45,165 nucleotides of DNA, from NCBI GenBank assembly GCA_030153785.1, contig JASKLF010000012.1, forward strand, positions 1 to 45,165, given 5' to 3'. The notes under the pieces were generated by a model. That model was given only the letters and a program-made list of their open reading frames with translations, did no database searches and was not told the origin of the DNA. Source of the DNA: a bacterium (lineage in GTDB: Bacteria; Synergistota; GBS-1). Below, piece after piece: positions 24,354 to 43,273 of the stretch. Position 1 is the first letter of the stretch; the number at the start of each line of letters is the position of its first letter. Made by a program: the position numbers and the translations under genes.

Positions 24354-24369
24354 GAAGGGGGGAACCCTG

Positions 24370-26202: not shown

Positions 26203-26232
26203 AGGGAGGTTCAAAGCCTCCCTTTACTTTTA
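26198..26232 (+). terminator. Hairpin/intrinsic terminator after aor
   Basis: AGTAAAGGGAGG-TTCAAAG-CCTCCCTTTACT followed by TTT. Confidence 0.7.
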
Positions 26233-26236
26233 TAGG

Positions 26237-26464: not shown

Positions 26465-26466
26465 AG

Positions 26467-27615: not shown

Positions 27616-27622
27616 GGAGGTA

Positions 27623-28606
27623 TTGGAATTGCTTGTAATAGGCAGGGAAGATGTTCAAAAAGCCATAACGATGCGAGATGCCATTGAAGCTATTAAAAGA
27701 GGATTTATCCTCTTTTCTCAAAGAAAGGCTGTCGTTCCCTTGAGGGTCCCAATTAAGTTGAGAGAGAATACGATTCTTTTTATGCCTGGTGCATTGCTCG
27801 AGGACAAAAGTGTGGGAGTTAAGGCTGTTTCAGTTTGTCCCGGTAATCCAGAGAGGGGTCTACCTTTGATAAATGCTGTTGTTCTTCTCATCGACGGTGA
27901 AACGGGAAGACCACAAGCACTAATAGATGGAAACATTATTACTACTATAAGGACCGGTGCTGCCGGTGGTGCTGCAGCGGAAATCTTAGCAAGGCGAGAT
28001 TCTAAAATTGCTCTAATAATAGGTGCTGGTGTCCAGGGAAGAATTCAGCTTGAAGCTTTGAAAACGGTGAGAGACATAGAACTTGCATATGTTTATGATA
28101 TTAACGATCGAAAGGCAGAAAAATATGCAAGCGAAATGGCTGAAAGATTAAACACTGAAGTAAAAGCTGTTAAAGATTATGAAAAAATTATTTCTGAAGC
28201 TGACATAATAGTTACCGCTACAACTTCCAAGGATCCTGTGCTAAAAGGGAATCTTCTTAAGAAGGGAGCTCACATTAACGCTATAGGCTCTTATACTCCG
28301 GAAATGAAGGAGCTGGATGTGGATACCTTCAGTAGAGCATCGATGATAGCTGTGGATTCTAAAGATGCAGTTCTTGAGGAAGCGGGAGAGATAATAGAAG
28401 CTTTAAGAAGAGGTATTATAAGAGAGGATGCCCTGATAGAGCTTGGTGAAATTTTATCCAATACTGAGCTGGGTAGAAAAGATGAAAGTGAAATAACCGT
28501 GTTTAAAACGGTAGGTATAGCTGTAGAAGATATTGTAGTTGGAAAACTTGTATACGAAAGAGCCTTAGAAAAGGGGATAGGCGTGGAAGTGAAAAACTTT
28601 TTGTAA
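27623..28606 (+). CDS. Ornithine cyclodeaminase/mu-crystallin family protein
   Basis: MPG, GVKAVS, T..RTGAAG, IIGAG.QG, HINAIGS, FKTVGIA.ED. Confidence 0.9.
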   Translation: MELLVIGREDVQKAITMRDAIEAIKRGFILFSQRKAVVPLRVPIKLRENTILFMPGALLEDKSVGVKAVSVCPGNPERGLPLINAVVLLIDGETGRPQALIDGNIITTIRTGAAGGAAAEILARRDSKIALIIGAGVQGRIQLEALKTVRDIELAYVYDINDRKAEKYASEMAERLNTEVKAVKDYEKIISEADIIVTATTSKDPVLKGNLLKKGAHINAIGSYTPEMKELDVDTFSRASMIAVDSKDAVLEEAGEIIEALRRGIIREDALIELGEILSNTELGRKDESEITVFKTVGIAVEDIVVGKLVYERALEKGIGVEVKNFL

Positions 28607-28639: not shown

Positions 28640-28981
28640 TTGACTTTATCCGAAATTAAAGACATACTAGAAGCAAAAGTTTATGCCTGTGAGGACCTCC
28701 TTGATGTTAATGTTGAGTTTGGTTGCGCTGGCGATATGATTAGCGATATTTTGGCTTTTGCCAAGCCGTGTTCCGTTCTTTTAACGGGCATGATTACTCC
28801 ACAGATAATAAAGGCGGCCAAAATATTGGATTTAGCGGGAATAGTTATTGTGAGGGGTAAGGAACCTCTTCCAGAAACTGTAGAAAGAGCACGTGAGGAA
28901 AGAATCCCACTTTTGGGAACTAAGTTTTTCCTGTTTAACGCTTGTGGAAAACTTTACGAGCGAGGATTAAGAGGAATATGA
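28640..28981 (+). CDS. DRTGG-domain protein
   Basis: AGDMISDILA, LLTG, IVIVRGK.P, ACG.LY..G family motifs. Confidence 0.8.
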   Translation: MTLSEIKDILEAKVYACEDLLDVNVEFGCAGDMISDILAFAKPCSVLLTGMITPQIIKAAKILDLAGIVIVRGKEPLPETVERAREERIPLLGTKFFLFNACGKLYERGLRGI

Positions 28982-29931
28982 GTGACCTTGATATATTAGA
29001 TTACCTAAGCGAGTACAAAAAAATATTTAGCTTTATGACTGCCGATGAAGTCATGAAGAAGGATCTTATAACCCTAACGCCAGAAGATAAACTTTCTGAA
29101 GCAAGGAAGATAATGCGAGACAAAAGAATTTCTGGTGTGCCTATTGTTGACAGCGAAGGTAAGCTTGTGGGGCTGGTGAGCACAGAAAGAATCATAAGAG
29201 CGCTTGAAGAGGGAGTAATAGACAAAAAAGTAGGAGAATATATGACAACGAGAGAGAGGATTGTATACCTTAAACCCGAAGACACATTTGAGAAGATAGT
29301 AGAAACATTTGAAAAATATAGATATGGTAGATATCCAGTGATAGATAAAGATGGGAAACTTGTAGGCCTGATAACCAAGCATGATATCTTAAGAGCCATA
29401 CTAAGAAGGCTTCACTCCATATATATACATGATAAAAGGAGAGAAATGTTCCTCAGCAAGGAAGTATCCATCTTGACAGGCGAAGAGTTTGTGGAAAGCA
29501 AGGCTTCTTTTAGATATGAGATAAATACAACTTCCATAGCGGAAGCGGGAGAAGGTAGCACTTTTTTGAAGAAAGTGCTTGAAAAAAGAAATTATCCTAA
29601 GCCCTTCATTAGAAGGGTTAGCATAGGCACATACGAGGCTGAGGTTAATGTGGTTATCCATGCAGGAGGCAAGGGATTAATCCTTGCTTTCTTTGAAGAT
29701 GATAGAGTTGTCGTCTTGGTCAGAGACTGGGGACCAGGCATAGAAGATGTAGACCTTGCGATGAAGGAGGGATACACCACCGCTCCTGATTCTGTTAGAG
29801 AATTGGGGTTTGGAGCGGGTATGGGGTTACCTAACATGCGAAGGGTTGCAGATAGGTTGATAATCCTTTCTCAAATTGGAAAAGGAACTAAAGTAGAAAT
29901 GGTTTTTAATCTTAGGGAGGGAGAATCTTGA
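28978..29931 (+). CDS. CBS-pair + RsbT-like HATPase Ser/Thr kinase (anti-sigma-type) fusion
   Basis: Two CBS repeats, then YEAEVNVVIHA, D.GPGI.D..LAM.EGY.TA, GFGAGMGLPN; ATG 28978. Confidence 0.85.
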   Translation: MSDLDILDYLSEYKKIFSFMTADEVMKKDLITLTPEDKLSEARKIMRDKRISGVPIVDSEGKLVGLVSTERIIRALEEGVIDKKVGEYMTTRERIVYLKPEDTFEKIVETFEKYRYGRYPVIDKDGKLVGLITKHDILRAILRRLHSIYIHDKRREMFLSKEVSILTGEEFVESKASFRYEINTTSIAEAGEGSTFLKKVLEKRNYPKPFIRRVSIGTYEAEVNVVIHAGGKGLILAFFEDDRVVVLVRDWGPGIEDVDLAMKEGYTTAPDSVRELGFGAGMGLPNMRRVADRLIILSQIGKGTKVEMVFNLREGES

Positions 29932-30263
29932 AGTTAAGGGAGATTGTTAATGTCTTGGAGTGTGAAGTCTTAACAGGAGATCTCAACATGGATGAAGAGA
30001 TACTGTATGGCTATACTAGTGACCTTTTAAGTGAAGTCATAGGTAAGGCAAAAGCAGGGTCTATATGGATAACGATTCAAAGTCATTTGAACATAATTGC
30101 CGTTGCAGTTTTGGTTGGTATTAAAGCGATTGTAATATGTGAGGATAAAAGTGTGGATTCAAAAATCGTTGAAAAGGCAAAGGAAGAGGGAGTCGCTCTT
30201 CTAAGGACGAAAGAAAACGCTTTCAGAACATCCGGCTTTTTGTTTAAGGCTGGCTTAAATTGA
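29928..30263 (+). CDS. DRTGG-domain protein
   Basis: GYTSDLLSEVI, WITIQSHLNIIAVA. Confidence 0.82.
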   Translation: MKLREIVNVLECEVLTGDLNMDEEILYGYTSDLLSEVIGKAKAGSIWITIQSHLNIIAVAVLVGIKAIVICEDKSVDSKIVEKAKEEGVALLRTKENAFRTSGFLFKAGLN

Positions 30264-30270
30264 TCTATAG

Positions 30271-30279
30271 TGTTATAAT
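30271..30279 (+). promoter_or_regulatory. Extended -10 promoter 8 nt before the PHP gene start
   Basis: TGTTATAAT with TGGCTT 17 bp upstream of the -10 hexamer; no SD before ATG 30288. Confidence 0.55.
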
Positions 30280-30287
30280 ACTAAAAA

Positions 30288-31019
30288 ATGTGGCTTAAGG
30301 CAGAGCTCCATGTTCATACAGTGCTTTCAGCTTGCGCTGACTGGGAAATGACTCCCAGGAACATAATACGCAGAGCAAAAGAAGTAGGGGTAAAAGTTGT
30401 AGCTATAACCGACCATAATACGGCTAAGAATGTAAGACCGTGTGTAAAAATAGGAGAGAAAGAGGGTATTTTAGTTGTCCCAGGAATAGAAGTCCAAACA
30501 AAGGAAGAGGTGCATATGGTCTGTCTATTTCCATCAGAAGAGACGGCGATAGGCTTTGAAAATTGGCTTCAGAAGTTTTTGCCTAACTTAACAAACAATG
30601 AAGAGATCTTTGGAGATCAAGTGGTGGTAGATGAGGATGATAATGTTATTGAAATAGATAAGCGTTTGCTTCAGGTTTCCGCTAATGTTTCTATCGAAAG
30701 CGTTGTTGAAAAAGTTATAGAATTTAAAGGTGTGGCTTATCCAGCACATGTTAACCGTGAGTATTGTGGTATAATCCCCGTTTTAGGTTTTATTCCCCCT
30801 AATCTTCCGTTCAAAGTAGCTGAAATAAGCTCTTCTATGAATGTTTCCTCCTTTTTGAAGGAACACCCGGAGTTAGGTGATTATGTCTTAATTGTTTCTT
30901 CCGATGCCCATTTTTTGTCTTCTATAGGGAAAAGCAGGACACTCGTGAATCTTGACAAACTTAGGACAGATAACTTACTTGAAGCAATTCAAGACAAAAG
31001 GAGGGTCAAAATATGGTAA
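30288..31019 (+). CDS. PHP-domain metallophosphoesterase
   Basis: LHVHT.LS, AITDHN, PGIE, PAH, SSDAH. Confidence 0.9.
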   Translation: MWLKAELHVHTVLSACADWEMTPRNIIRRAKEVGVKVVAITDHNTAKNVRPCVKIGEKEGILVVPGIEVQTKEEVHMVCLFPSEETAIGFENWLQKFLPNLTNNEEIFGDQVVVDEDDNVIEIDKRLLQVSANVSIESVVEKVIEFKGVAYPAHVNREYCGIIPVLGFIPPNLPFKVAEISSSMNVSSFLKEHPELGDYVLIVSSDAHFLSSIGKSRTLVNLDKLRTDNLLEAIQDKRRVKIW

Positions 31020-31489
31020 AATTATCAAAAGAGAAACTTGAAAAAGTTGAACAGATTTTAAATCGTTTTCCTAAAGGGCAGTCATCTTTGATTGGTGCCC
31101 TTCATGCGATACAGCTTGAGATAGGTTACCTTCCTGAGGAAGTTCAGAAGCTTGTAGCTGAGAGATTAGGGATTCCAGAAAGCACGGTCTATGGAGTTGT
31201 CACATTCTATAACTTTTTCCGAAGAGAGCCTGTAGGTAAATATATCATAACGGTATGTGAGGGAACCGCATGTCACGTGAGGGGTGCACCGGAAGTAATA
31301 AAGGAGCTTGAAAAGACTTTAGGAATAAAGGTTGGACATACAACTCCTGACGGGAAGTTTACTTTAGATATAGCAAGATGTTTTGGCTGTTGTGGTTTAG
31401 CTCCTGTAATAATGGTTAACGAGGAGATTTATGGTAGAGTAACCCCTGATAATGTGAAGGAAATAGTTTCCAAGTATAGCAGTGAATAG
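31013..31489 (+). CDS. NuoE/HydC-like [2Fe-2S] subunit, copy 1
   Basis: GVVTFY.FF, VCEGTACH, RCFGCCGLAP. Confidence 0.92.
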   Translation: MVKLSKEKLEKVEQILNRFPKGQSSLIGALHAIQLEIGYLPEEVQKLVAERLGIPESTVYGVVTFYNFFRREPVGKYIITVCEGTACHVRGAPEVIKELEKTLGIKVGHTTPDGKFTLDIARCFGCCGLAPVIMVNEEIYGRVTPDNVKEIVSKYSSE

Positions 31490-32041
31490 ATGGAGGAAAT
31501 AGCATTACACATTTTAGATATAGTTGAAAACTCTATAAGTGCTGGTGCAACCATAGTTAAGATAATGATTGAAATTAGCAAAAAGCGTGATTTACTTAGA
31601 ATAGTCGTAGAAGACGATGGGAAAGGAATGGATGAAGAAGAGGTTAAAAAGGCCTTGGACCCTTTCTATACATCTAAAAAGAATAAAAAAGTGGGTCTGG
31701 GTATTCCCATGTTTGCTCAGATGGCAGAAAACTGTGGTGGATACCTTAAAATAGAGAGTGAAAAGGGAAAGGGGACAAAAGTTATTGCGGAAATGAGACT
31801 TAATCACATAGATAGACCGCCACTTGGCGATCTTGCTTCTACTATCTTCACAACTATTTTGGGGCATCCCAATGTAGATTTTCTGATAGAAATACAAACA
31901 GATGATAAGAGGGTGGAAGTCGATACCAGACAAATTAAGGAAATAGTGGGACAAGAAGGATATCTTCACCCCGAGGTTATAAGGTTTATAAAGGATAACA
32001 TTGAAAGCGAGATAGAAGATATATTGAAGGGGGGTATATAA
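31490..32041 (+). CDS. Stand-alone HATPase_c (histidine-kinase-like) protein
   Basis: LHILDIVENS, DDGKGM, DPFYTS, GLGIP, HIDRPPLGD; no sensor domain. Confidence 0.85.
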   Translation: MEEIALHILDIVENSISAGATIVKIMIEISKKRDLLRIVVEDDGKGMDEEEVKKALDPFYTSKKNKKVGLGIPMFAQMAENCGGYLKIESEKGKGTKVIAEMRLNHIDRPPLGDLASTIFTTILGHPNVDFLIEIQTDDKRVEVDTRQIKEIVGQEGYLHPEVIRFIKDNIESEIEDILKGGI

Positions 32042-32392
32042 ATGAAAATAGAGGAACTTAGAAAATTAAGGGAAAAAGTGAGAGAGGAACTCAAATTAAG
32101 AGAAGGCGTTGAACCTCGCGTGAAAATAATTGTCAGCATGGGAACTTCGGGAATAGCTGCAGGAGCTAGAGAAGTTTTAAAAGCCTTACTAGATGAAGTT
32201 TCCAAAAGGGGATTGAAAGATGTGGTTGTCTTGCAAACCGGCGAAAAGGGTTTGGCTTCCGCTGAACCCCTTGTAGAGGTTGTTACTCCTGAGGCTTCCG
32301 TGACCTATGGTAGGGTGACCCCTGATGTGGCCAGAAGGATAGTAGTTGAACATGTCATAAATGGGAGGATATTGTCAGAGTATGTAGTTTAA
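32042..32392 (+). CDS. Thioredoxin-like ferredoxin fold protein (HndB/HydD-like), cysteine-free
   Basis: GTSGIAAGAR, QTG..G...EPLVEV, TYG.VT, I..EH..NG motifs. Confidence 0.8.
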   Translation: MKIEELRKLREKVREELKLREGVEPRVKIIVSMGTSGIAAGAREVLKALLDEVSKRGLKDVVVLQTGEKGLASAEPLVEVVTPEASVTYGRVTPDVARRIVVEHVINGRILSEYVV

Positions 32393-32418
32393 CAACCAAA
32401 AAGATTTAGCGTAAAGGA

Positions 32419-34215
32419 GTGATTACATTGGTCAAAAGAGCTCATGTTTTGGTATGCATGGGAGCTGGTTGCGTATCTGCAGGCAGTGAGCTTATAAAGG
32501 AGAAGTTAGAGAAAGAGATAAAGGAAAAAGGTATTGATGTAGAGGTCAAAGTTATAGGTACAGGTTGTATGGGGCCATGTGAAAAAGGCCCACTCATTAT
32601 GGTATATCCGGAAGGAGCCCTTTATCAAAAGGTTAGTTTAGATGATGTTGATTTAATAGTTGAAGAACATCTTCTTAAAGGAAGGGTGGTTAGAAGACTT
32701 TTAGCCAAAGAAGGGGTTAAGCTGGAAGAGATTGCTGCCAGAGAGATTCCTTTCTTCGCTAAACAAGAGAAGATAGTCCTTGCAAATTGTGGTGTTATAG
32801 ACCCGGAGAATATAGAAGAATATATAGCGGCAGATGGTTATGAAGCTTTGGCTAAGGTTCTTGAAGGGATGTCTCCCGAGGAAGTCATATCTATAATAGA
32901 AAAATCTGGTCTAAGAGGCAGAGGAGGAGCTGGCTTCCCAACGGGACTTAAATGGAAGTTCGTGAGAGCGGCAAAGGGGAGTCCTAAATATGTTGTATGT
33001 AATGGTGACGAAGGGGATCCTGGTGCTTTCATGGATAGAGCGGTATTAGAAGGTGATCCACACGCTGTCTTAGAGGGAATGCTAATAGCCGCCTATGCTG
33101 TAGGTGCAGAACAGGGTTACATCTATGTTAGAGCTGAATACCCTTTAGCGATAAAGAGACTTCAGAATGCCATTGAGCAGGCCAAGAAATATGGTTTCCT
33201 TGGAAAAAATATTCTTGATACTGACTTTTCATTTGATGTTGAACTGAGAATAGGAGCAGGAGCTTTCGTTTGTGGAGAGGAAACTGCTTTACTTGCTTCC
33301 ATAGAAGGTAGAAGAGGAATGCCACGTTCTAAGCCTCCCTTCCCTGCAACTCATGGACTTTGGGGTAAGCCTACATTGATAAACAATGTAGAAACCTACG
33401 CCAATATTAGACACATAATACTTAAGGGAGCCGATTGGTTCAGAAGTTTTGGAACGGAGCAATCCACGGGAACTAAAGTTTTTGCCCTTTCCGGTAAAGT
33501 CAAAAATACAGGTCTGATAGAGGTTCCAATGGGAATAACCCTTCGTGAAATCGTTTTTGATATAGGGGGAGGAATAATCGACGATGGTAAATTTAAAGCA
33601 GCCCAAATAGGTGGACCATCTGGTGGATGTCTTACAAGGGAGCATCTGGATTTACCTTTGACCTATGAGTCTGTGAAAGAAGCAGGTGCTATTATCGGGT
33701 CTGGTGGTTTGATAGTCCTCGACGAAAATACCTGCATGGTTGAACTTGCCAGGTATTTCTTAGAATTTTGTCAACTTGAATCTTGCGGTAAGTGTATTCC
33801 ATGCAGGGTGGGAACTAAGAGAATGCTTGAAATACTTGAAAGGATAACTCAAGGCGCTGGCAGAATGGAGGACATTCAAGAGTTAGAGAGGCTTGGAAAG
33901 TGGATTCAGCAAACAGCCCTTTGCGGATTAGGACAAACCGCTCCTAACCCTGTCTTGAGCACAGTGCGATATTTTAAGGACGAATATGAAGCTCACGTTA
34001 TAGATAAGAAGTGCCCAGCTAAAGTATGTGTAGCTTTGATTAGATACCGTATTTTGGCTGAAAAATGTATAGGTTGTGGTAGGTGTGCTAAGGTTTGTCC
34101 TGTCAAGGCCATTACGGGGGAAATTAGAAAGCCGCATGTTATAAATCCGGAAATATGCATAAAGTGCGGAGAGTGTAAGAAGGCATGTCCTGTAAATGCT
34201 ATTATAGTGGAGTAA
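32419..34215 (+). CDS. NuoF/HydB-like FMN/NAD subunit, copy 1 (full-length, bifurcating-type)
   Basis: N-terminal [2Fe-2S] Cys, GRGGAGFPTG, DEGDPGAFMDR, GGPSGG, ESCGKCIPCR, C-terminal 2x[4Fe-4S]. Confidence 0.93.
   Translation: MITLVKRAHVLVCMGAGCVSAGSELIKEKLEKEIKEKGIDVEVKVIGTGCMGPCEKGPLIMVYPEGALYQKVSLDDVDLIVEEHLLKGRVVRRLLAKEGVKLEEIAAREIPFFAKQEKIVLANCGVIDPENIEEYIAADGYEALAKVLEGMSPEEVISIIEKSGLRGRGGAGFPTGLKWKFVRAAKGSPKYVVCNGDEGDPGAFMDRAVLEGDPHAVLEGMLIAAYAVGAEQGYIYVRAEYPLAIKRLQNAIEQAKKYGFLGKNILDTDFSFDVELRIGAGAFVCGEETALLASIEGRRGMPRSKPPFPATHGLWGKPTLINNVETYANIRHIILKGADWFRSFGTEQSTGTKVFALSGKVKNTGLIEVPMGITLREIVFDIGGGIIDDGKFKAAQIGGPSGGCLTREHLDLPLTYESVKEAGAIIGSGGLIVLDENTCMVELARYFLEFCQLESCGKCIPCRVGTKRMLEILERITQGAGRMEDIQELERLGKWIQQTALCGLGQTAPNPVLSTVRYFKDEYEAHVIDKKCPAKVCVALIRYRILAEKCIGCGRCAKVCPVKAITGEIRKPHVINPEICIKCGECKKACPVNAIIVE
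32897..32946 (+). repeat. 50-nt exact repeat, copy 1 (in NuoF-like copy 1)
   Basis: TAGAAAAATCTGGTCTAAGAGGCAGAGGAGGAGCTGGCTTCCCAACGGGA, identical to 35171-35220. Confidence 0.9.
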
Positions 34216-34242
34216 TTTTTTATCGAGAGGTGATGATGCCTT

Positions 34243-34698
34243 ATGCTGAAGGAGGTTCTTGGTAGGTTTGAGCCCAGGCGGGAAAATTTGTTAGACATTC
34301 TACACGCTATCCAAGAAGCTTCACCCACCAATAGCTTATCTAAAGAGGATATCGAGGCAGTTGCAAAATATGTCGGAATAACGCCAGCAGAAGTTTATGG
34401 AACGGCGACCTTTTATACCATGTTTTCCGTTAAACCAAGAGGAAAGCACATAATCAGAGTATGTACTTCAACCGCGTGCCATCTTCTCGGAGGAGAAACT
34501 GTTTTAGAAGCTCTTAAAAGAGAACTTGGTGTTGATGTTGGCGATACTACAAAGGATGGTTTGTTTACATTAGAAATATCAAGCTGTCTTGGAATATGCG
34601 GTGTAGCACCAGCCATGATGATAGACGAAGTGGCCTATGGTAATCTAACTGCCGATAAAATAAAGGAAATCATAGACCAATACAGGAGAGGGGGATAG
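34243..34698 (+). CDS. NuoE/HydC-like [2Fe-2S] subunit, copy 2
   Basis: ATFYTMF, VCTSTACH, SCLGICGVAP. Confidence 0.92.
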   Translation: MLKEVLGRFEPRRENLLDILHAIQEASPTNSLSKEDIEAVAKYVGITPAEVYGTATFYTMFSVKPRGKHIIRVCTSTACHLLGGETVLEALKRELGVDVGDTTKDGLFTLEISSCLGICGVAPAMMIDEVAYGNLTADKIKEIIDQYRRGG

Positions 34699-34701
34699 GC
34701 C

Positions 34702-36273
34702 ATGAGGATAGAAAGGGCCCATGTTTTGGTGGGAATAGATGCGGGGTCCCTCCTGGCTGGTGCAAGGGAGGTCCAAAAAAGACTGGAAGAAGAGATAAAA
34801 AAGCAGGGACTCGAGGAAGAGGTTAAAGTTCTCGAAACTGGCAGTTTGGGAATAACAGGGAGAGGAGTGGTTCTTCTCGTTTATCCTGAGGGAGTTTACT
34901 ATGTAAATGTGAAACCGGAAGATGTCCCACAAATAGTTGAAGAACATCTTCTTAAGGGAAGGCTTGTAAAAAGATTGATGCTTGAACCTCAAATAGCCGA
35001 AATCCTTGAGAGGTTAGAAGCTCCTAAAAAGCTTGCAAAACAAAAAAGAGTGGTTCTTCAAAATGCTGGCGTTATAAATCCCGACAGTATAGAAGAATAT
35101 ATAGCTACAGGTGGGTACGAAGCTCTCGCCAAGGCTCTAGAATCTCCTTCAGAGTGGGTTATAAGCGAAGTAGAAAAATCTGGTCTAAGAGGCAGAGGAG
35201 GAGCTGGCTTCCCAACGGGAAGAAAATGGAGATTTACCGCTGAGGCAAAGGCTCCTCGTAAATTCATAGTTTGTAATGCAGATGAAGGTGAACCGGGAAC
35301 CTTTAAGGATAGACTCATACTTGAGGGTGATCCTCACAGGGTCATAGAAGGGATGGCCATAGCAGGATATGCAGTTGGAGCTGACAAGGGATATATCTAC
35401 GTAAGAGGAGAATATGACCTTTCTATAAGGAGGCTAAGCAAGGCGATAGAAGATGCTTATAAAATGGGGTTGTTAGGCGACAATATCTTGGAAACAGGTT
35501 TTTCTTTCCACATAGAAATTAAGAAAGGTGCAGGGGCATATGTTTGTGGAGAGGAAACAGCGCTTATCGAATCCATAGAGGGAAAAAGAGGTAACCCGCG
35601 TCCAAAACCTCCTTACTATCCAGGTATAAAAGGATTGTGGGGATATCCCACTGTGGTCAATAATGTAGAAACGCTTGCTAATGTGCCCTCTATAATTTTA
35701 AACGGAGCTGATTGGTTTAGGACTATGGGAACCAAGGAATCTCCGGGAACAAAGGTTTATACTATTCTTGGACACGTTAACGAACCCGGTCTTATAGAAG
35801 TTGAGATGGGAACTACATTAAGAGAGGTGATTTTTGAGTTCGCTAAGGGGATCAGAAATAACCATGCGTTTAAAGCTGCGCTGATAGGTGGAGCTGCTGG
35901 AGCTTTCTTAGGCGAGGAAGCCCTCGATATTCCCCTTTCCTATGAGGGATTAAGGGAATATGGTGGTGTATTGGGCTCAGGAGCGATTCTCGTTTTTGAT
36001 GAAACCACTTCCATGGCCGATATGCTTAAAAACGTCATATTCTTCTTTAAACATGAAAGTTGTGGAAAATGTGTTCCTTGTAGAGTAGGAGTGAGCAAGC
36101 TATATGAGAAAATGGAAAAAATCCTTGAAAGTAAAGCTACAGAAAATGATTTAAAAGAAATGATAGAAATCTCGGATAAGATGGCTGATACGGCACTCTG
36201 TGCTTTAGGCCAGTCACTTATCCTTCCTGTATCAAGTACGATTCGTTTCTTCAAAGATGAATTAATGGTTTAG
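34702..36273 (+). CDS. NuoF/HydB-like FMN/NAD subunit, copy 2 (short, non-bifurcating-type)
   Basis: GRGGAGFPTG, DEGEPGTFKDR, GGAAG, ESCGKCVPCR..LCALG; N-terminal domain has no Cys; no C-terminal ferredoxin domain. Confidence 0.92.
   Translation: MRIERAHVLVGIDAGSLLAGAREVQKRLEEEIKKQGLEEEVKVLETGSLGITGRGVVLLVYPEGVYYVNVKPEDVPQIVEEHLLKGRLVKRLMLEPQIAEILERLEAPKKLAKQKRVVLQNAGVINPDSIEEYIATGGYEALAKALESPSEWVISEVEKSGLRGRGGAGFPTGRKWRFTAEAKAPRKFIVCNADEGEPGTFKDRLILEGDPHRVIEGMAIAGYAVGADKGYIYVRGEYDLSIRRLSKAIEDAYKMGLLGDNILETGFSFHIEIKKGAGAYVCGEETALIESIEGKRGNPRPKPPYYPGIKGLWGYPTVVNNVETLANVPSIILNGADWFRTMGTKESPGTKVYTILGHVNEPGLIEVEMGTTLREVIFEFAKGIRNNHAFKAALIGGAAGAFLGEEALDIPLSYEGLREYGGVLGSGAILVFDETTSMADMLKNVIFFFKHESCGKCVPCRVGVSKLYEKMEKILESKATENDLKEMIEISDKMADTALCALGQSLILPVSSTIRFFKDELMV
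35171..35220 (+). repeat. 50-nt exact repeat, copy 2 (in NuoF-like copy 2)
   Basis: Identical to 32897-32946. Confidence 0.9.
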
Positions 36274-36276
36274 GAG

Positions 36277-38130
36277 GTGTTTTTTACTGTGAGAGAAGTG
36301 AAGATAAAAATAGACGGAAGGGAATTTACTGCAACTGAGGGTATGACGATTCTTGAGGCTGTGAGAAAAGCGGGTTACGAAGTTCCCACCCTTTGTTATC
36401 ACGATGGGTTATCTCCCCATGGAGGTTGTAGACTTTGTGTTGTCGAGGTTAAGGGTTCTCCCAGACTTCTAACAAGTTGTACCACTCCTGTAGCTGACGG
36501 CATGGAAGTGTTTGTAAACACCGATAGAGTTAAGGAAGCCCGTAAGTTTGTGATGAATTTAATTATGACGGAAAGAAATCACTTCTGTATGTTCTGCGAA
36601 AAGAGCGGTAGATATGAAGAGACAGACTGTGAGCTTCAAAAGAGAGCGTATGAAGTTCAAATAGAGCACTTCCCGTTTCCTGTATACGTAGATAAGTATC
36701 CTGTGGATACAAGCTCTCCTGTCATGGTTACGGACCACAATCGTTGTATTCTTTGTGGTAGATGTGTAAGAGTTTGCTCGGAAATCGTGGCTAACTCGAC
36801 GCTCGATTTTAGCTTCAGGGGGTCCAAAACTCTAATAGCAGCGGATACTGGCTTGAATAAGGGAGAATCGAGCTGTATTTCTTGTGGAGCGTGCATGCAA
36901 GTTTGCCCTGCAGGTGCCATCTTTAGCAAGTTTGGTGGATATAAAGGTAAGAAGAGTCTTTGTGAAAAGGTGGAAACCTTCTGTCCCATATGTGGTGTAG
37001 GTTGTGAAACCACAAACTATGTAAGATATAACAATATTGTTGAAATAGAGGGTGCCGGCCTGGCTAAGAGAACCTTAGATGGTGGTCAACTTTGCGAGAA
37101 AGGAAGATACGGGCCCATTATGGAATCAAGGAATAGAATTTCTATTCCTCTGATTAGAGATGCAAAGGGAAGATTTGTAGAAGCTACATATGGAGAAGCG
37201 GTGAATAAGGTTGTCCAGCTTTTAAAGGCTAACTCGCCGGACCAAATTGCCTTTAGAGCTTCTTCTTTCTTGCCAGCAGAAGATCTTGCTTATATCAAAG
37301 GGTTTGCTTCCAAACTGGGAGTGGAAGACATAGATACCTTCGACGGAGATGTATACAGGAACCTGTCTTCTTTCAGTGGAAGTAAGGCTACCTACGAAGA
37401 TCTGCTTAACGCTGACTTAATTCTTCTCGTTGGTGGAGATATAATTAAAGAACACGGAGTCGTTGGCTCCTACATAAGGAGAGCTGTTAGAAATAAAGGT
37501 GCGGAACTTATGGTAATTTCATCCATGGAAAGCAAGATAGAAAGATGGGCTAAAGAAGTGAAGAGGATAGCAGAAGGAAGCGAAGGCTCAGTTGCCGTTG
37601 AGTATAAAGAGAAAATATCTGCAGCCTCTAATCCTGTAATAGTCCTTGAAGGAGCGGGGCTTTTGAGGAACAAAGAGGCTATAGAACCGTGGTTAAGACT
37701 TGCAGAAGAGCTTAGCGTTAAGGTGATGGCGTTGGCACCAACGGGAAACAGCTTGGCTGCTTGGGAATTAGGCGTAGCCCCTGTTTCTTCGAATACTCTC
37801 GGGAAACCTAAGAAACTATTATTCCTCTTCCTTGGAGATATAGATTCGAGCTATGCGCCTGCAGAGATAGCTGAAATAGGCTACGAAACTGTGGTTCTCC
37901 ACAGCGCTTATATAGACGCGATGATGAAGTTGTCTGATGTGGTGCTCCCAGGAAAGAGCTGGCTTGAAAATGAAGGAACTTACAAACTATTGAACGGAGA
38001 AGTCAGGAAATTCACTAACATACTTAATGCGGAAGATAATGCTAAAAGCCCGCGTGAGTTCCTATCCGACTTAGCCAATGCTATGGGATTGGGAACCATT
38101 GATGTTAGTTCTCTCGTTAGTAAGCTTTAA
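36277..38130 (+). CDS. NuoG-like Fe-S adaptor subunit (HydA of NiFe-HydABCSL type; degenerate molybdopterin-oxidoreductase C-terminus)
   Basis: PTLCY..GGCRLCVVE [2Fe-2S], HFCMFC..CELQ, RCILCGRCVRVC, CISCGACMQVCP, CPICGVGC..LCEKGR; no H-cluster motifs. Confidence 0.85.
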   Translation: MFFTVREVKIKIDGREFTATEGMTILEAVRKAGYEVPTLCYHDGLSPHGGCRLCVVEVKGSPRLLTSCTTPVADGMEVFVNTDRVKEARKFVMNLIMTERNHFCMFCEKSGRYEETDCELQKRAYEVQIEHFPFPVYVDKYPVDTSSPVMVTDHNRCILCGRCVRVCSEIVANSTLDFSFRGSKTLIAADTGLNKGESSCISCGACMQVCPAGAIFSKFGGYKGKKSLCEKVETFCPICGVGCETTNYVRYNNIVEIEGAGLAKRTLDGGQLCEKGRYGPIMESRNRISIPLIRDAKGRFVEATYGEAVNKVVQLLKANSPDQIAFRASSFLPAEDLAYIKGFASKLGVEDIDTFDGDVYRNLSSFSGSKATYEDLLNADLILLVGGDIIKEHGVVGSYIRRAVRNKGAELMVISSMESKIERWAKEVKRIAEGSEGSVAVEYKEKISAASNPVIVLEGAGLLRNKEAIEPWLRLAEELSVKVMALAPTGNSLAAWELGVAPVSSNTLGKPKKLLFLFLGDIDSSYAPAEIAEIGYETVVLHSAYIDAMMKLSDVVLPGKSWLENEGTYKLLNGEVRKFTNILNAEDNAKSPREFLSDLANAMGLGTIDVSSLVSKL

Positions 38131-38141
38131 GTAAGGGGGAG

Positions 38142-38687
38142 ATGAACTTGGCTAAGGTAAAGGTTGCCACTACTTGGCTTGAGTGCTGTTCTGGTTGTCA
38201 CATGTCTTTTCTGGACTTGGACGAAAAACTCGTAGAGTTATTATCAAAAATAGAATTTGACGCCAGTCCAATAACGGATATAAAAGATTTTCATCCTGTT
38301 GATGTGGGTATAGTAGAAGGAGCTGTGGGGAATGAGGAACAGCTTGAGGTTCTCAGAAAGATACGCGAAAACTCCAAGATACTGATAGCTTTAGGAGACT
38401 GTGCTTGTTTTGGCGGTATTCCTGCGATGAGGAACTTCTTCGATAAAGATGAAGTTTTAAAGAGAGTTTACATCGAAACGGAAAGCACAGTTAACCCGAA
38501 GAAAGTTATACCTCATGAAGATGTTCCAAAGCTTTTCCCCAGTGTTAAAGGTATCGACCAATTTGTTAAAGTTGACGTTTATATACCTGGTTGTCCTCCT
38601 GACCCGAGAGCTATAGAATATGCTTTAAAAGAACTCCTTGAAGGTAGGATACCCGTTTTACCACCCGAGCTCCTGTCGTATGAATGA
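38142..38687 (+). CDS. [NiFe] hydrogenase small subunit (HoxY/HydS-like, single cluster)
   Basis: CCSGCHMS, EGAV, GDCACFGG, PGCPP; 181 aa. Confidence 0.92.
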   Translation: MNLAKVKVATTWLECCSGCHMSFLDLDEKLVELLSKIEFDASPITDIKDFHPVDVGIVEGAVGNEEQLEVLRKIRENSKILIALGDCACFGGIPAMRNFFDKDEVLKRVYIETESTVNPKKVIPHEDVPKLFPSVKGIDQFVKVDVYIPGCPPDPRAIEYALKELLEGRIPVLPPELLSYE

Positions 38688-38705
38688 TGAGGAGGTGTTT
38701 AGCTC

Positions 38706-40136
38706 ATGGCACAAAAACTTGAAATATTCCCTGTAACCAGGGTTGAAGGTCACGGTAAGGTTACAATATACCTTAATGAGAATGGTGAAGTAGAAAGGAC
38801 ATACTTTCACGTTACCCAAATAAGGGGGTTTGAAAAGTTCTGCGAGGGAAGAGTCTTTTGGGAAATGCCGGTGATGACCCAAAGAGCCTGTGGAATTTGC
38901 CCAGTAAGCCACCATCTCGCTTCGGCTAAGGCTACCGACAAAATACTTGGGGTTGAAATCCCGCCTACAGCAAAAAAGCTGAGAGAACTCATGCATATGG
39001 GACAGCTCGTTCAATCCCATTCTCTGCATTTCTTCCATTTGGCAAGTCCCGATCTTCTCTTGGGTATGGATGCTGATCCCAAGATAAGAAACGTTGTGGG
39101 AGTTATAGAAAAGCATCCAGACCTCGCCGTAAGGGGAGTCAAACTCAGAAAGTATGGTCAGGAAGTAATAAGAACACTTGCAGGAAAAAGAATTCACCCT
39201 CGCTTTGCTATCCCAGGAGGAGTTAACAAGGGACTTACCGTCCAAGAAAGAGATGCGCTGTTAAAAGATATAGACTGGGTAATAGATAGCCTTAAAGATA
39301 CTGTAAAACTTATTAGAAATTTAGCCATAGATTGGGGAGACAAGTTTAGGAATTTCGCTTCGTTTCCATCCTTCTACATGGGACTTGTAGATGACAACGG
39401 CAATCTTGACTTATATCATGGAAAGATAAGATTGTGTGATCATAAGGGAAGAATTGTTGACGAATTCAGCGAAGATGATTACCTCCAGAAGATAGGAGAA
39501 TGGGTTGAGCCTTGGTCCTATATGAAATTTCCGTTTTACAAGGAATTTGGCTATCCAGAGGGAAGCTATAGGGTTGGGCCGTTAGCAAGATTGAATTGCT
39601 GTGATGATATTCCAACTCCATTAGCAAAAGAAGAGTTTAAGCTATTCCGTGAAATGGTTGGAGATAGAGTGGCAGAAGGCTCTTTATTCTATCACTATGC
39701 AAGGATGATAGAAGCCCTCCATTCGGCTGAGAGATTAAAAGAGCTTTTAGAGGATCCTGATATAACGGGAACGGAGCTTCAAGCCATTAGCAGAAAATTT
39801 AACCCTGAAGGAATAGGAGTACTTGAAGCACCAAGAGGTACACTTATACACCACTATAAGGTTAATGAAAATGGCGAAGTTGTAAAAGCAAACCTTGTAG
39901 TAGCTACCGTGCATAACAATCACGCTATGAACAAGGCCGTAGAGCTCGTTGCTAAGGAGCACATCAAGGGACCGGAAATAAAGGAAGGATTCTTAAACAT
40001 GCTTGAGGTAGCTATAAGGTGCTACGATCCTTGCTTATCCTGTGCAACCCATGCAATTGGTAAGATGCCTCTCCAGGTTATCATTTACGACGCTGAAGGT
40101 AAGAAAGTAAAAGAGTTGGTGAAGGATCCCTGTTAG
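38706..40136 (+). CDS. Group 3 [NiFe] hydrogenase large subunit (HoxH/HydL-like)
   Basis: TRVEGHG, L1 RACGICPVSH, EAPRGTLIHHY, L2 YDPCLSCATH followed by a cleavable C-terminal extension. Confidence 0.96.
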   Translation: MAQKLEIFPVTRVEGHGKVTIYLNENGEVERTYFHVTQIRGFEKFCEGRVFWEMPVMTQRACGICPVSHHLASAKATDKILGVEIPPTAKKLRELMHMGQLVQSHSLHFFHLASPDLLLGMDADPKIRNVVGVIEKHPDLAVRGVKLRKYGQEVIRTLAGKRIHPRFAIPGGVNKGLTVQERDALLKDIDWVIDSLKDTVKLIRNLAIDWGDKFRNFASFPSFYMGLVDDNGNLDLYHGKIRLCDHKGRIVDEFSEDDYLQKIGEWVEPWSYMKFPFYKEFGYPEGSYRVGPLARLNCCDDIPTPLAKEEFKLFREMVGDRVAEGSLFYHYARMIEALHSAERLKELLEDPDITGTELQAISRKFNPEGIGVLEAPRGTLIHHYKVNENGEVVKANLVVATVHNNHAMNKAVELVAKEHIKGPEIKEGFLNMLEVAIRCYDPCLSCATHAIGKMPLQVIIYDAEGKKVKELVKDPC

Positions 40137-40585
40137 CTGTAATAGGATACGGAAATTACTCTCGAAAAGATGACGGAGTTGGTATATGGATAGGAGCCAG
40201 ATTAAAAAGCAGATTTAAAGATTATAAGAATCTAAAGTTTTACCTTTTACACCAGCTTACTCCGGAACTTGCTGAGGAGCTTAAGGAAGCAAAATGTGTG
40301 GTGTTTATAGATGCCGCTGTTGGTAAAGAAGATTGGTCTATAAGGAAAATAAGTTTAGGGGAGCATCGTGCTCCCCTAAACTACGTTTTTCATGCTTTAT
40401 ATCCTGAGGAACTCCTAAGGCTTATGAAGTTGCTTTACGGAAAAGCCCCAAAGGCTTGGATTTCAAGCATAAAGGGAGAGGATTTTTCCTTTGGAACTGG
40501 GTTGAGTCCAAAAACAAAAAGCTTTGCCGAAGAAGCAGAGATAATTCTCGAAAGTCTTATAAGGTCGGAGTTAAAAGATGCATGA
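40130..40585 (+). CDS. Hydrogenase maturation endopeptidase (probable CTG start)
   Basis: Frame is open upstream of the listed ORF: (L)LAVIGYGNYSRKDDGVG...HQLTPELAE...VVFIDA...H...G.GLS. Confidence 0.88.
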   Translation: MLAVIGYGNYSRKDDGVGIWIGARLKSRFKDYKNLKFYLLHQLTPELAEELKEAKCVVFIDAAVGKEDWSIRKISLGEHRAPLNYVFHALYPEELLRLMKLLYGKAPKAWISSIKGEDFSFGTGLSPKTKSFAEEAEIILESLIRSELKDA

Positions 40586-40964
40586 GTTTTCGTTAGCTGA
40601 GGCTTTAATGAACGTAGTTTTAGAGGAAGCAACTAAATATGGAGCTTGTAAAATACTTAAAATTAAAGTTAGAGCGGGCAAGCTTATGGGCATAGTTCCT
40701 GAGCTTTTAGATTTTGCCTTTAGCTCTCTCGCAGAGGGGAGCATTGCAGAAGGAGCTAAGCTTGAGCTTGAGGAAGTTCCCTTCAAAGGGAAATGCCGTT
40801 CTTGTAATTACTCTTTTAGTGTGGATGATTTCTTTGGGGTTTGTCCTAACTGTGGGAGTGACGAAATCGATATCCAAGGTGGAAAGGAGTTTGAGCTGGT
40901 TGGGCTTGAAATAGAGAGGGGTGATGAAAAGCTTGGAGATAAAGGTTGTAAGGAAAATACTTGA
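40578..40964 (+). CDS. hypA: Hydrogenase nickel metallochaperone HypA
   Basis: MHE N-terminus, CRSC and CPNCGS Zn motifs, GG.E. Confidence 0.96.
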   Translation: MHEFSLAEALMNVVLEEATKYGACKILKIKVRAGKLMGIVPELLDFAFSSLAEGSIAEGAKLELEEVPFKGKCRSCNYSFSVDDFFGVCPNCGSDEIDIQGGKEFELVGLEIERGDEKLGDKGCKENT

Positions 40965-41577
40965 AGCCGGAATGCGGATAGCGGAAACAAATAGGAGAAT
41001 ATTAAAAGAGAAAGGCATTACGAGTTTCAATTTTATTGGAGCGCCAGGCGCTGGAAAAACTTCCTTACTTTTAAAGCTTATAGAAAACCTGAAAGATAGA
41101 TATAGAATAGGAGTAATAGAGGGAGATTTAGCTACAACAAGGGATGCTGAGAAAATCTATCAGACAGGTGTTCCCGTTGTACAGATAAATACCGAAGGTG
41201 GTTGCCATCTTGATGCCAACCTTGTCGGAAAAGCATTGGAAAACCTACCTCTTGAGGATATCGATATCCTATTCATAGAAAATGTGGGTAATCTAGTCTG
41301 TCCCACAGCTTTCGACTTAGGTGAAGACTACAAAGTAGGGATATTAAGCGTCCCGGAAGGAGATGACAAGCCAGAAAAATATCCTGTAATAGTTAAAGTT
41401 TCAAAAGCCATAGTTCTAAATAAGATCGACATGTTACCCTACTTTAGATTTGATAGAGAACGGTTCTACTTTCCCATTAAAAAGCTTTCTCCCAGTATGC
41501 CCATCTTTGAAGTTTCGTGTGAGACCGGTGAGGGAATAAGCAAAGTGGTTGAGTGGATAATTTCAAAAGTAACATAA
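40921..41577 (+). CDS. hypB: Hydrogenase nickel incorporation GTPase HypB
   Basis: PGAGKT, VIEGD, GGCHLDA, ENVGNLVCP, EGDDKP.KYP, NKID; exact start uncertain. Confidence 0.96.
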   Translation: MMKSLEIKVVRKILEAGMRIAETNRRILKEKGITSFNFIGAPGAGKTSLLLKLIENLKDRYRIGVIEGDLATTRDAEKIYQTGVPVVQINTEGGCHLDANLVGKALENLPLEDIDILFIENVGNLVCPTAFDLGEDYKVGILSVPEGDDKPEKYPVIVKVSKAIVLNKIDMLPYFRFDRERFYFPIKKLSPSMPIFEVSCETGEGISKVVEWIISKVT

Positions 41578-41592
41578 AAGGAGGCGAGGGGG

Positions 41593-42177
41593 ATGGGCAA
41601 AAGGATACTGGAATTGGTGGGGGATTTTGTCGAGGACTATGAAGCAATGGTTCCCTATCAGATGCTACTTATGTTAGGTTATCAAGTTGACACTACCTGT
41701 CCTGGTAAAAAGCCTGGGGAGAAAGTTAAAACCGCTATTCACGATTTTGAGGGAGACCAAACCTACAGCGAGAAGCCTGGTCACTTCTTCATGATAACCA
41801 AAGATTTCGACACGATTAAAGTGGAAGATTACGATGGCTTGGTTATTCCAGGCGGAAGAGCTCCCGAGTACTTGAGAATGAATCCTAAAGTAGTTGAACT
41901 TGTTAAAAAATTTGCTGAAGCCAAAAAGCCTATAGCGGCAATATGCCATGGTCCTCAACTCCTGACTGCCGCTAAAGTTATAAGTGGTAAAAGGATATGC
42001 GCTTATCCAGCCGTGGCAGCTGAAATAGAACTTGCAGGTGGGACTTATGTTCCTCCAAATGAGACCTTTTCAAACGCCGTAGTTGACGACATATTCGTAA
42101 CAGCACCAGCATGGCCTGCTCATCCTGAATGGATTAGAAAGTTTGTTGAACTGCTTGGGGCTAAAATAGAAATATAA
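41593..42177 (+). CDS. DJ-1/PfpI family protein
   Basis: GDFVEDYE, IHDFEGDQTYSEKPGH, PGGRAPEYLR, AICHG, APAWPAHP. Confidence 0.92.
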   Translation: MGKRILELVGDFVEDYEAMVPYQMLLMLGYQVDTTCPGKKPGEKVKTAIHDFEGDQTYSEKPGHFFMITKDFDTIKVEDYDGLVIPGGRAPEYLRMNPKVVELVKKFAEAKKPIAAICHGPQLLTAAKVISGKRICAYPAVAAEIELAGGTYVPPNETFSNAVVDDIFVTAPAWPAHPEWIRKFVELLGAKIEI

Positions 42178-42197: not shown

Positions 42198-42240
42198 AAA
42201 AAAGGGAGGTGGATTCCCTCCACCTCCCTCTTGCTTTTTT
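42198..42240. terminator. Bidirectional intrinsic terminator between the convergent hydrogenase and wtp operons
   Basis: AGGGAGGTGGA-TTCCC-TCCACCTCCCT flanked by an A-tract upstream and a T-tract downstream. Confidence 0.8.
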
Positions 42241-43273
42241 AAAATACGTGTATCGCAGTAGCCTTAAATCCAGCAAAAAGTTTCTTACCGGGATGAATTC
42301 CAAGTTCGACAGCCGCTGCTCTTGTTATTATAGATTTGATAACCAAGTTTTCGACTTTAAGTGTAACTTTAAGCACACCTTGCAGATCTTGAATTTCTAG
42401 GACAGTTGCTTCAAAAACGTTTCTCAGTGAACTTTTAAGTGGGTTCTCCGAAAGGACTATATCTTCAGGTCGAATAGCAATCCTCACTTTACCGAAGAAA
42501 CTTTTGGGAAGCTTTATTGAAATTCCGTTAGCCTTAAGCTCATATCCTTGTGCAAATCCCTCAATGATATTCTCAAACCCTAAAAAGGAAGCTATTTTTT
42601 CGTCTTTCGGCTTAGAGAAAACTTCTTTTATACTACCCAATTGAGCGATCTCACCATCAAGCATTATTCCCACACTATCTCCGAGGGTCAAAGCTTCCTC
42701 AAAAGAGTGAGTAACGTGAATTGCTGTAAAGTTAAGCTCTGTTCTCCACTTCTTGAAATCCGAAAGTAATTTTGCTGATGTCAAAGGATCAAGATTGGCG
42801 AAAGGTTCGTCTAAAAGAAGGAGCCTTGCTTCTATGACTAAACTTCGAGCTATTGCCACACGTTGGGATTCTCCTCCACTCAATGTCTTTGGCTTTCTAT
42901 TGAGAAGATGTTCAATACCAAGAATAGAGGATATATCTTTAATTTTCTTGGATATAAGGCTTTCCGGTGTTTTCCTTAATCTAAGTCCATAGGCTATATT
43001 CTCATACACGCTCATGTGAGGGAAAAGCCCATAGTTTTGGGGAACATAGGCAAAATGTCTTTTTTCTGGCTCGAGAAAAGTTATATCCTCTCCATTCCAG
43101 TAAATTTTACCCCTTTCAGGAAAAAATATACCCGCGATTAGCTCCAGCAACAAGGTCTTCCCCGCACCGCTTGGGCCAAGTATTATAAAATACTCTCCTT
43201 CTCTCACCTCAAAAGATATGTTTTCAAGAGAAAACTCCTGCCATTTTCTACAAACTCTCTCAAGCTTAAGCAA
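42239..43273 (-). CDS. wtpC: Tungstate/molybdate ABC transporter ATPase
   Basis: [24 protein letters not shown]-terminal TOBE-like domain. Confidence 0.88.

Follow-up and report, generated by a model that had tools for sequence, protein, structure and literature searches.

The 45,165-nucleotide stretch of contig JASKLF010000012.1 (assembly GCA_030153785.1, Synergistota) analyzed here, hereafter the window, encodes on its forward strand a NiFe hydrogenase in which one catalytic core is accompanied by two HydC/HydB (NuoE/NuoF) pairs. The genes follow the order E1, HATPase, thioredoxin-like protein, F1, E2, F2, HydA-like subunit, HydS, HydL and protease, and both flavin modules sit within one tightly packed gene run. 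An earlier note, made from the letters of this DNA, had reported the gene order, the lengths of the products and the positions of their motifs, and re-reading together with Pfam and NCBIfam matches bore them out. It had also assigned F1 to the electron-bifurcating type and F2 to the non-bifurcating type, an assignment that holds by all published sequence criteria. The parts of the operon are known while their pairing is, to judge from the literature covered, undescribed, and the locus is a real, conserved variant of a known enzyme family. The sequence comparisons make it rather probable, in our judgement, that the two modules dock one at a time on one HydA surface, giving two isoenzymes. Genomes (G) and loci (L) are cited by our own handles where they have to be told apart, G000 being the genome of the window.

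The bifurcating-type module E1/F1

F1 carries the motifs DEGDPGAFMDR (33007-33039), KPPFP and GGPSG and contains 24 Cys residues. It was aligned to the HydB of locus L005, which is identical to chain 7t2r_B of Acetomicrobium mobile and shares 63% identity with F1, and ligands were found for all five HydB clusters, B1-B5. Those of B5 are C13, C18, C50 and C54, the B2 set C439/H526/C532/C537 aligns with C438/H525/C531/C536 of A. mobile HydB, and a ferredoxin-type tail for B3/B4 forms the C-terminus. The partner E1 has one [2Fe-2S] site of four Cys residues. F1 and F2 are 55% identical and E1 and E2 44%.

The published Phe/Tyr marker is F282 of A. mobile HydB in the loop GAGA[F/Y]VCGEE (PMC8880783). 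F1 has Phe283 and F2 Tyr280 in this loop; the typing by Phe or Tyr given in the earlier note was thus correct, whereas PPFP and PPYYP, which it had taken as the marker, are not the published residue.

The topology test allowed F1 to form a clade with A. mobile HydB (approximately unbiased test, p-AU 0.367). A sister relation of F1 to the fusion proteins found in the order of G041 appeared in FastTree, was lost in a 38-row IQ-TREE and was discarded. In two other genera of the family, F1 itself is a fusion of 1,004 (G002, L003:4340-7354) or 1,017 residues (G003, L004:6779-9832), which retains the B2 ligands and in which B3/B4 is replaced by DPD-II and a pyridine nucleotide-disulphide oxidoreductase domain. 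From its fold signature we take the latter domain to be of the type that uses reduced nicotinamide adenine dinucleotide phosphate (NADPH). The short-tailed F1 of G000 and G001 nests within the two fused forms (96/80, IQ-TREE), a hint, subject to the placing of the root, that the ferredoxin tail was regained in the genus of these two genomes.

The non-bifurcating-type module E2/F2

F2 displays DEGEPGTFKDR (35281-35313), KPPYYP and GGAAG and lacks GGPSG. Four of its six Cys residues belong to B1, the N-terminal domain is Cys-free and no ferredoxin tail is present; clusters B2-B5 are absent, with S437 at the position of the B2 Cys and the chain stopping at residue 523. The features listed by Losey for non-bifurcating subunits are all found, namely T and K at the positions of the site for the reduced dinucleotide (NADH), where T/S and K/S/A are allowed, Tyr at the flavin mononucleotide (FMN) site and no GGPSG. 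The 120 best homologues of F2, whose names include Syntrophorhabdaceae, Dictyoglomus, Caldisericia, Aerophobetes and WOR-3, are 521-547 residues long; every one has TFK and no more than one Cys within residues 1-110, and 119 share the Tyr equivalent to Tyr280. The PPxP residue is Phe in 19 of the 120, and the PPYYP insertion at the adenine-stacking position is rare (6/120).

The best solved relative of F2 is chain B of 7T2R. The Glu that binds ribose in A. mobile HydB (E287) has its equivalent in F2, which is therefore more likely to be linked to NADH than to NADPH. A reading in which the core is common to both modules and F2 uses NADP(H), or couples to soluble ferredoxin through cluster C1 of E2, would draw on the PPYYP insertion, on the four [2Fe-2S] Cys residues kept by E2, on motif rules built on few assayed enzymes (PMC7311640) and on the confurcation reported for a tail-less cyanobacterial HoxF (bioRxiv 10.64898/2026.06.25.734504). 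HoxF, however, keeps AFM/F/GGPSG, whereas F2 has three non-bifurcating markers and no ligands for B2 or B5; moreover, the retained Glu and the NfnAB pair present in 4/4 family genomes, judged by the small subunit, speak against this reading, which we consider very unlikely.

In the 38-row IQ-TREE the F2 clade comprised 16 rows across phyla (98/94), separate from every HydB-type row, and E2 fell in its own cross-phylum clade (15 rows, support 99). An origin of F2 as an in-family duplicate of F1 was rejected (constraint joining the family F1 and F2, p-AU 0.000159). By these trees F2 is an old cross-phylum lineage and no local copy of F1. As the F2 and E2 clades cross phyla and HydA is of the NiFe type, the locus represents an old D-E2-F2 module within a NiFe-HydABCSL operon. 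Ten F2 relatives (P0007, P0012, P0042, P0050 and six more) have B2-like ligands and lack B3-B5; they are possible intermediates of cluster loss.

Conservation of the locus and integrity of the assembly

Close homologues of the encoded proteins bear the names Synergistetes or Synergistota. Of 251 genomes of the phylum, four gave an F2-level match, and all four belong to the family of the window. The operon order is kept in all four family genomes, which belong to three genera, and most subunits share 80-92% protein identity with those of the three other genomes (locus L012, yielding the same proteins as L004, was counted once). The synteny of two E-F pairs followed by the NuoG-like subunit, S and L, which the earlier note had suggested searching for, is thus conserved, whole in G001 and G003 and up to hydA in G002, where the contig ends in that gene. 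In other families of the phylum a single-module form, E-F1-A-S-L, occurs (L005, L006, L007); G011, also of this phylum, has a HydB with exactly the sequence of A. mobile 7t2r_B. Comparison with G001 returned proportions of changed nonsynonymous sites (pN) of 0.084 for F1, 0.074 for F2 and 0.105 for HydA against 0.72-0.79 for synonymous sites (pS), and by this measure both modules are under strong purifying selection.

At least half of the sampled words were recovered in each of eight sequencing runs from four studies, on metagenomes of subsurface, shale-gas, hydrocarbon and terrestrial origin, and five of these runs were flagged as possible sources. Contigs of X6 (30200-32926, 32917-35200 and 35191-41700) span every gene junction, and those of X7, from another study, every junction up to the protease. 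An assembly chimera or a decaying paralogue would find its footing in the contigs of X6, X7 and X8, which are interrupted at a 50-nt repeat common to F1 and F2, no single listed piece spanning the stretch. The same order in the other family genomes, the junctions carried on single contigs and the pN values far below pS leave this explanation a negligible probability, and the chimeric assembly that the earlier note had raised was excluded on these grounds. One joint in X7 (33243-35527) rests on 21 letters at one side, and its span matches the offset between F1 and F2; it was treated as a paralogue match. The RNA run X14 gave only eight short contigs with a depth of 3-6.

The catalytic core and its partners in the genome

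The best PDB match of HydA is 7t2r_A (E 3e-101) and that of HydL is 7t2r_D (E 4e-192), the nearest solved relatives of HydL being, in order, 7t2r_D, 5xf9_D and 5odc_F. HydA groups with the NiFe-type A subunits, apart from FeFe HydA and FdhA (FastTree 0.953); it has one A1 domain and lacks about 50-70 residues of A. mobile HydA.

Besides F1, F2 and HydA of the operon, G000 has a third NuoF-type gene and a second A-type subunit, both of which belong to a CooF-CooS-CooC-E-F-A operon of the carbon monoxide dehydrogenase (CODH) type (L001:8966-15214, C2). The NuoF of this operon measures 566 aa, with AYM and GGPSG and no B2-B4 tail, and the operon occurs also in G002 and G003 and was not found in G001. 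No FeFe hydrogenase domain was detected in G000 (95.7% complete). In G001 (99% complete) PF01512 matched F1, F2, an RnfC-like protein and nothing else. This genome lacks F and A of the CODH type and has one HydA-type subunit for two flavoproteins; the other two Fer2_4 matches correspond to a 119-aa open frame, left unread, and to an 83-aa open reading frame that is not HydA-like.

Genes for a single-cluster ferredoxin, for an NfnAB-type pair and for four POR-family proteins are also present in G000. An operon for a membrane hydrogenase of the Mbh type is found as well; both CxxC motifs are intact in its large subunit, whose best match is 6cfw_L. An RnfC-like protein (G000:C1:12660-13619, minus strand) scored below the TIGR01945 cut-off and no Rnf is claimed. 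A second Bfu-like operon in two other genomes (L008:6054-11855 in G011; L009:6082-11951 in G021) encodes E, a Cys-poor D, a fused F of 1,044-1,054 aa and an A subunit of 566 aa, with no adjoining catalytic gene.

Module 2 outside the family

F2-level matches were recovered from 63 of 96 genomes in the order of G041 (centre titled Syntrophorhabdales), 34 of 151 in the class of G043 (Aminicenantes) and 87 of 121 in the phylum of G042 (Cloacimonadota). Sixty loci, 20 per group, were picked for high score and long contigs and are therefore a non-random sample; as kin share layouts, they amount to three or four independent observations. All 20 loci of the G041 order show D-E2-F2-HydA and then E1-F1-HydA, each module having its own FeFe HydA, and their F1, which is split into pieces in two loci, is a fusion protein of some 1,020 aa. 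All 20 loci of the G043 class have an F1-E2-F2 tandem before either FeFe HydA (10) or FdhA (10), one being cut by a contig end. The G042 phylum is more varied, with 12 loci of the form E1-D-F1-E2-F2-HydA, five D-E2-F2-A loci without F1 on the fetched stretch and three E1-F1-F2-FdhA loci without D and E2. In total, F2 occurs with its own HydA beside a second module in 20 loci, alone with one A subunit in 5 and in tandem with F1 in 35 (n = 60). These layouts show that either module can be paired with a single A subunit and that the nature of the catalytic centre does not matter to the tandem cassette. In L202, L203 and L204 (E1-HATPase-F1-F2-FdhA), F2 is retained without a NuoE or HydD of its own.

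In the class of G044, F2 was present at E 1e-185 in none of 201 genomes, and a strong HydA match in 6 of 209 was accompanied by at most one flavoprotein on the stretch, two stretches being cut by contig ends. The F2 pattern gave 10 matches in 8 of 301 genomes of the G044 phylum, a sample that overlaps the G041 order; three matches were F2-type, all in already-known genomes. No F2-level match was found in 41 genomes of the family of G822, and none of the frames listed there was clearly short and of the TFK type. A genome-wide scan with variable F2 peptides returned 74 loci, of which one was an F2 orthologue (L012) and 73 were HydB-type or fragments. In the scans of the sampled groups no NiFe-linked dual operon was found outside the family of the window. 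Four other loci (L223, L224, L226 and L227) contain NiFe HydA-S-L operons whose sole flavoprotein is a fused NADPH-type form (1,049-1,132 aa), and in a spirochaete locus (L228:12-8284) two flavoproteins of the TFK type precede a HoxU-like subunit and NiFe S and L.

One core and two modules: proposed mechanism and alternatives

The stand-alone and two-HydA loci outside the family, together with the two flavoproteins and one HydA of G001, point to a HydA site shared by two isoenzymes. The module swap on one HydA core put forward in the earlier note has thus gained support of a comparative kind. Two isoenzymes are also the simplest arrangement, because each HydA has one A1 domain and the helix bundle of B1 (ESCGKCxPCRVG) is retained in both F1 and F2. 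In A. mobile the electron wire runs FMN-B1-A1-A2-A3-S1-NiFe, with a ferredoxin branch C1-B2-B3/B4 and a dead end at A4/A5 (PMC8880783). Both HydB subunits would feed such a wire at B1, the C1-B2-B3/B4 branch to ferredoxin being predicted for F1 only. Isoenzyme 1 (HydC1-HydB1-A-S-L) would couple ferredoxin plus NADH to H2 by bifurcation or confurcation, and isoenzyme 2 ((HydD)-HydC2-HydB2-A-S-L) would link NADH alone to H2.

The production of H2 from NADH alone works only under about 60 Pa (PMC7311640). At very low H2, when a partner organism removes the gas, module 2 would dispose of NADH with no reduced ferredoxin spent, and the spared ferredoxin would stay available to the Mbh-type membrane hydrogenase; at higher H2, module 1 would be needed. 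A choice by H2 level has been suggested for anaerobes possessing both types of enzyme (PMC7311640).

A different arrangement, with both modules fixed in one larger complex and an electrical link between the flavins, as when one NADH site feeds the bifurcating one, appears quite unlikely to us. In its favour, F1 lies on the fetched stretch in 55 of the 60 outside F2 loci and in 4/4 family genomes, F2 directly follows F1 without E2 and D in three loci, and the packing of HydA may differ from A. mobile, given its 50-70 fewer residues. On the other side, the stand-alone and two-HydA loci indicate that neither module requires the other, HydA contains a single A1 domain and A4/A5 forms a dead end in A. 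mobile. Furthermore, the two pentamers of the A. mobile dimer lie more than 40 Å apart, beyond transfer distance (PMC8880783), which renders a complex wiring both flavins to one NiFe site less likely. If the enzyme of the window dimerizes as in A. mobile, mixed dimers would be possible and their halves would be electrically separate.

Several observations weigh against two isoenzymes built on one core. The single FeFe HydA of the dual loci clusters with the HydA that F2 partners in the G041 order rather than with the one partnered by F1 (FastTree 0.994), so that the sharing of HydA by F1 is the weaker half of the proposal. A further A subunit lies on the stretch in 3 of 20 loci of the G043 class, and the statement of one A subunit at the outside loci holds for about 9 kb on either side. 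B2-like Cys/His ligands are retained in 10 of 48 aligned F2 relatives, and the tail-less HoxF mentioned above is reported to confurcate. In addition, both isoenzymes active together would be expected to short-circuit ferredoxin to NAD+ via H2. A control step would be needed, since this short circuit is possible and no transcriptional switch is visible: a promoter scan of the gene run returned 33 sites against 35.8 expected, with no internal signal above chance. The accessory kinase-like and PHP genes also flank single-module operons, the DRTGG/CBS/PHP genes preceding those of L005 and L007.

The lineage of the single FeFe HydA also favours an alternative in which only module 2 serves the NiFe core, and module 1 works as a free NADH:ferredoxin or NADH:NADP enzyme or with an aldehyde:ferredoxin oxidoreductase (AOR) or the CODH-linked A subunit. 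In G000, G001 and G003 the gene run also includes, on its upstream side, genes for an Fe-S protein, AOR and a MoaD-like protein, and Type 4 Bfu enzymes without BfuA have been described (PMC9304861). Against it, F1 resembles A. mobile HydB, which binds a HydA of this kind, keeps the B1 bundle and may form a clade with that protein; the CODH-type F and A are absent from G001, and the F1 of the G041 order has its own HydA. We regard this alternative as unlikely.

The two isoenzymes might also be part of a regulated exchange of heads, in which a mobile two-module cassette, placed on NiFe, FeFe and Fdh cores in several phyla, is flipped post-translationally between bifurcating and NADH-only forms, an extension to which we assign a low probability. 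The Cys-free HydD, the kinase-like ATPases and PHP would then set which module is bound, thus avoiding the short circuit, and the bifurcating head would itself exchange ferredoxin-type and NADPH-type tails within the family.

The HydD-like protein and the 50-nt repeat

The thioredoxin-like protein, labelled "Trx/Fd" in the earlier note, has no Cys residue and therefore cannot be a ferredoxin. Its structure model (predicted local distance difference test score, pLDDT, 85) gave as top Foldseek matches the N-terminal domain of HydB/NfnB-type chains and the Aquifex thioredoxin-like ferredoxin. Scored by alignment, HydD-like proteins at F2 loci have none of the three Cys residues in 61/61 cases, window included, whereas at loci without F2 all three are present in 28/30, the exceptions being L008 and L009. 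The 21 F2-linked HydD rows form one clade (90/92); the Cys-free state thus goes back to a single event inherited with F2 rather than to a repeated co-loss. The Cys-free form carries invariant T-S-G and G-E motifs. HydD is not part of the A. mobile holoenzyme (PMC9304861), and the Cys-free protein is, judging from its distribution, likely an accessory of module 2.

Fifty bases are identical between F1 and F2 although their silent sites are saturated, the longest identical stretch in the relatives being 29, 17 and 11 nt; the pattern suggests local gene conversion. The repeat could in principle permit a deletion yielding an F1/F2 hybrid, and no deletion between the copies was seen in four sequencing runs.

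Layout of the locus and neighbouring genes

The features of the locus are collected in Table 1. The protease was assigned with TIGR00072, for which the 151-aa reading of the frame open from 40130 scored 71.6 bits (cut-off 47.45), while the 95-aa open reading frame from 40298 fell below the cut-off. No ATG, GTG or TTG occurs in this frame upstream of 40298. A CTG at 40130-40132 overlaps the hydL stop, is kept in 3/3 genomes (window, G001 and G003) and has GGTGA 7 nt upstream; it is the probable start of translation.

Table 1. Features of the hydrogenase locus, in positions of the window.
Feature	Position	Strand	Basis
Accessory/regulatory genes: DRTGG, CBS + HATPase_c_2, DRTGG, PHP	28640..31019	+	Pfam; homologues in L005, L007
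HydC1/NuoE1	31013..31489	+	[2Fe-2S] ligands C82, C87, C123, C127; Pfam; E1 side of tree
HisK-like stand-alone HATPase	31490..32041	+	Pfam; 42% to same-position gene of L005
HydD-like thioredoxin-fold protein, Cys-free	32042..32392	+	Alignment, structure model
HydB1/NuoF1, 598 aa, bifurcating type by sequence	32419..34215	+	Pfam, ligands, motifs
50-nt stretch identical in F1 and F2, copy 1	32897..32946	+	Own 50-nt contig in X6, X7
HydC2/NuoE2	34243..34698	+	Ligands C74, C79, C115, C119; cross-phylum clade
HydB2/NuoF2, 523 aa, non-bifurcating type by sequence	34702..36273	+	Pfam, motifs, alignment
50-nt stretch identical in F1 and F2, copy 2	35171..35220	+	
NiFe-type HydA scaffold, clusters A1-A5, no H-cluster	36277..38130	+	PDB match, alignment, tree
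HydS, HoxY-like small subunit	38142..38687	+	Pfam/NCBIfam; 56% to L005 HydS
HydL, NiFe large subunit, C-terminal extension	38706..40136	+	RACGIC, DPCLSCATH; PDB match
Maturation protease, probable CTG start	40130..40585	+	TIGR00072
hypA and hypB	40578..41577	+	Pfam
Terminator-like hairpin after PfpI-family gene, probable end of gene run	42203..42229	+	Consensus scan only

Upstream, genes for an Fe-S protein, AOR, a MoaD-like protein, an FAD (flavin adenine dinucleotide) amine oxidase-like protein and an ornithine cyclodeaminase-family protein (23964-28606, plus strand) run co-directionally into the hydrogenase block with gaps of less than 35 nt, an order kept in G001 and G003. It is possible that these genes and the hydrogenase form an amino-acid-to-H2 unit. 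Downstream, an ABC transporter with a TOBE domain and an SBP_bac_11 binding protein (42239-45039, minus strand) converges on the end of the operon. We take this transporter to be of the molybdate/tungstate type, which would fit the nearby AOR.

Significance and comparison with known systems

No description of two HydBC pairs in one operon was found in the literature covered, which left subscription journals mostly outside; none is given in the covered parts of the articles cited here, PMC3362086, PMC13082233 and PMC8892533 included. How a HydBC core with a single FMN bifurcates is an open question, and the comparisons made so far cross organisms and cores. The operon offers a natural matched pair, with the same HydA-S-L and two HydB/HydC pairs. 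If the proposal is true, fermenters could shift between a syntrophic life at low H2 and a free-living one at high H2 with one hydrogenase. Dual-module loci can be mislabelled when they are annotated from the catalytic subunit or from a single beta subunit, and the 60 outside loci indicate that such cassettes are not rare among the anaerobes found in digesters and sediments.

The closest known system is the NiFe-HydABCSL of A. mobile (Type 3 NiFe-Bfu; 7T2R/7T30; PMC8880783, PMC9304861), which shares the order hydC-hisK-hydD-hydB...hydA-hydS-hydL-protease and DRTGG/CBS/PHP genes upstream. Besides that of F1, the identities to A. mobile-type subunits are 56% for HydS, 59% for HydL and 33% for HydA. 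That enzyme is defined by one HydB and one HydC, whereas the window has two of each, the second pair lying between hydB and hydA, and thus represents a variant. Moreover, HydD has no Cys in the window against three in L005, HydA measures 617 aa against 692 in A. mobile, the accessory block is without the 442-aa Fe-S gene, and F1 in two family genomes has a DPD-II/FAD/NADPH-type domain for B3/B4.

F2 resembles the beta subunits of Syntrophomonas wolfei Hyd1ABC and Syntrophus aciditrophicus HydAB (PMC7311640) in T-x-K, Tyr, the lack of GGPSG and the lack of B2-B5. The likeness is one of sequence criteria; those enzymes are FeFe hydrogenases with a single beta subunit, whereas F2 has a Cys-free N-terminal thioredoxin domain and lies before a NiFe core beside a bifurcating module. 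A 520-aa beta subunit of Ca. Cloacimonas with T-K-Y-GGAAG is listed as predicted non-bifurcating in the supplement of the same paper, and Cloacimonadota have been described as relying on an NADH-dependent enzyme.

Among the Hydrogenedentota, characterized in silico (PMC11406978), the BfuB of BfuABC sub-type I has DPD_II and FAD/NAD(P) domains for B3/B4, as does the F1 of G002 and G003. Sub-type II is without B3-B5, and nearly all of its strains also carry a bifurcating sub-type. These enzymes are FeFe hydrogenases encoded in separate gene clusters, each with its own BfuA, and no two-module operon is described in the parts of that article covered here. Finally, Vhu-Fdh-Hdr of Methanococcus maripaludis (PMC10805699), whose proteins are unrelated, places exchangeable modules on one redox core, as proposed here; in that system a single bifurcating flavoprotein takes different input enzymes, whereas in the window the flavin module would vary on the catalytic core.

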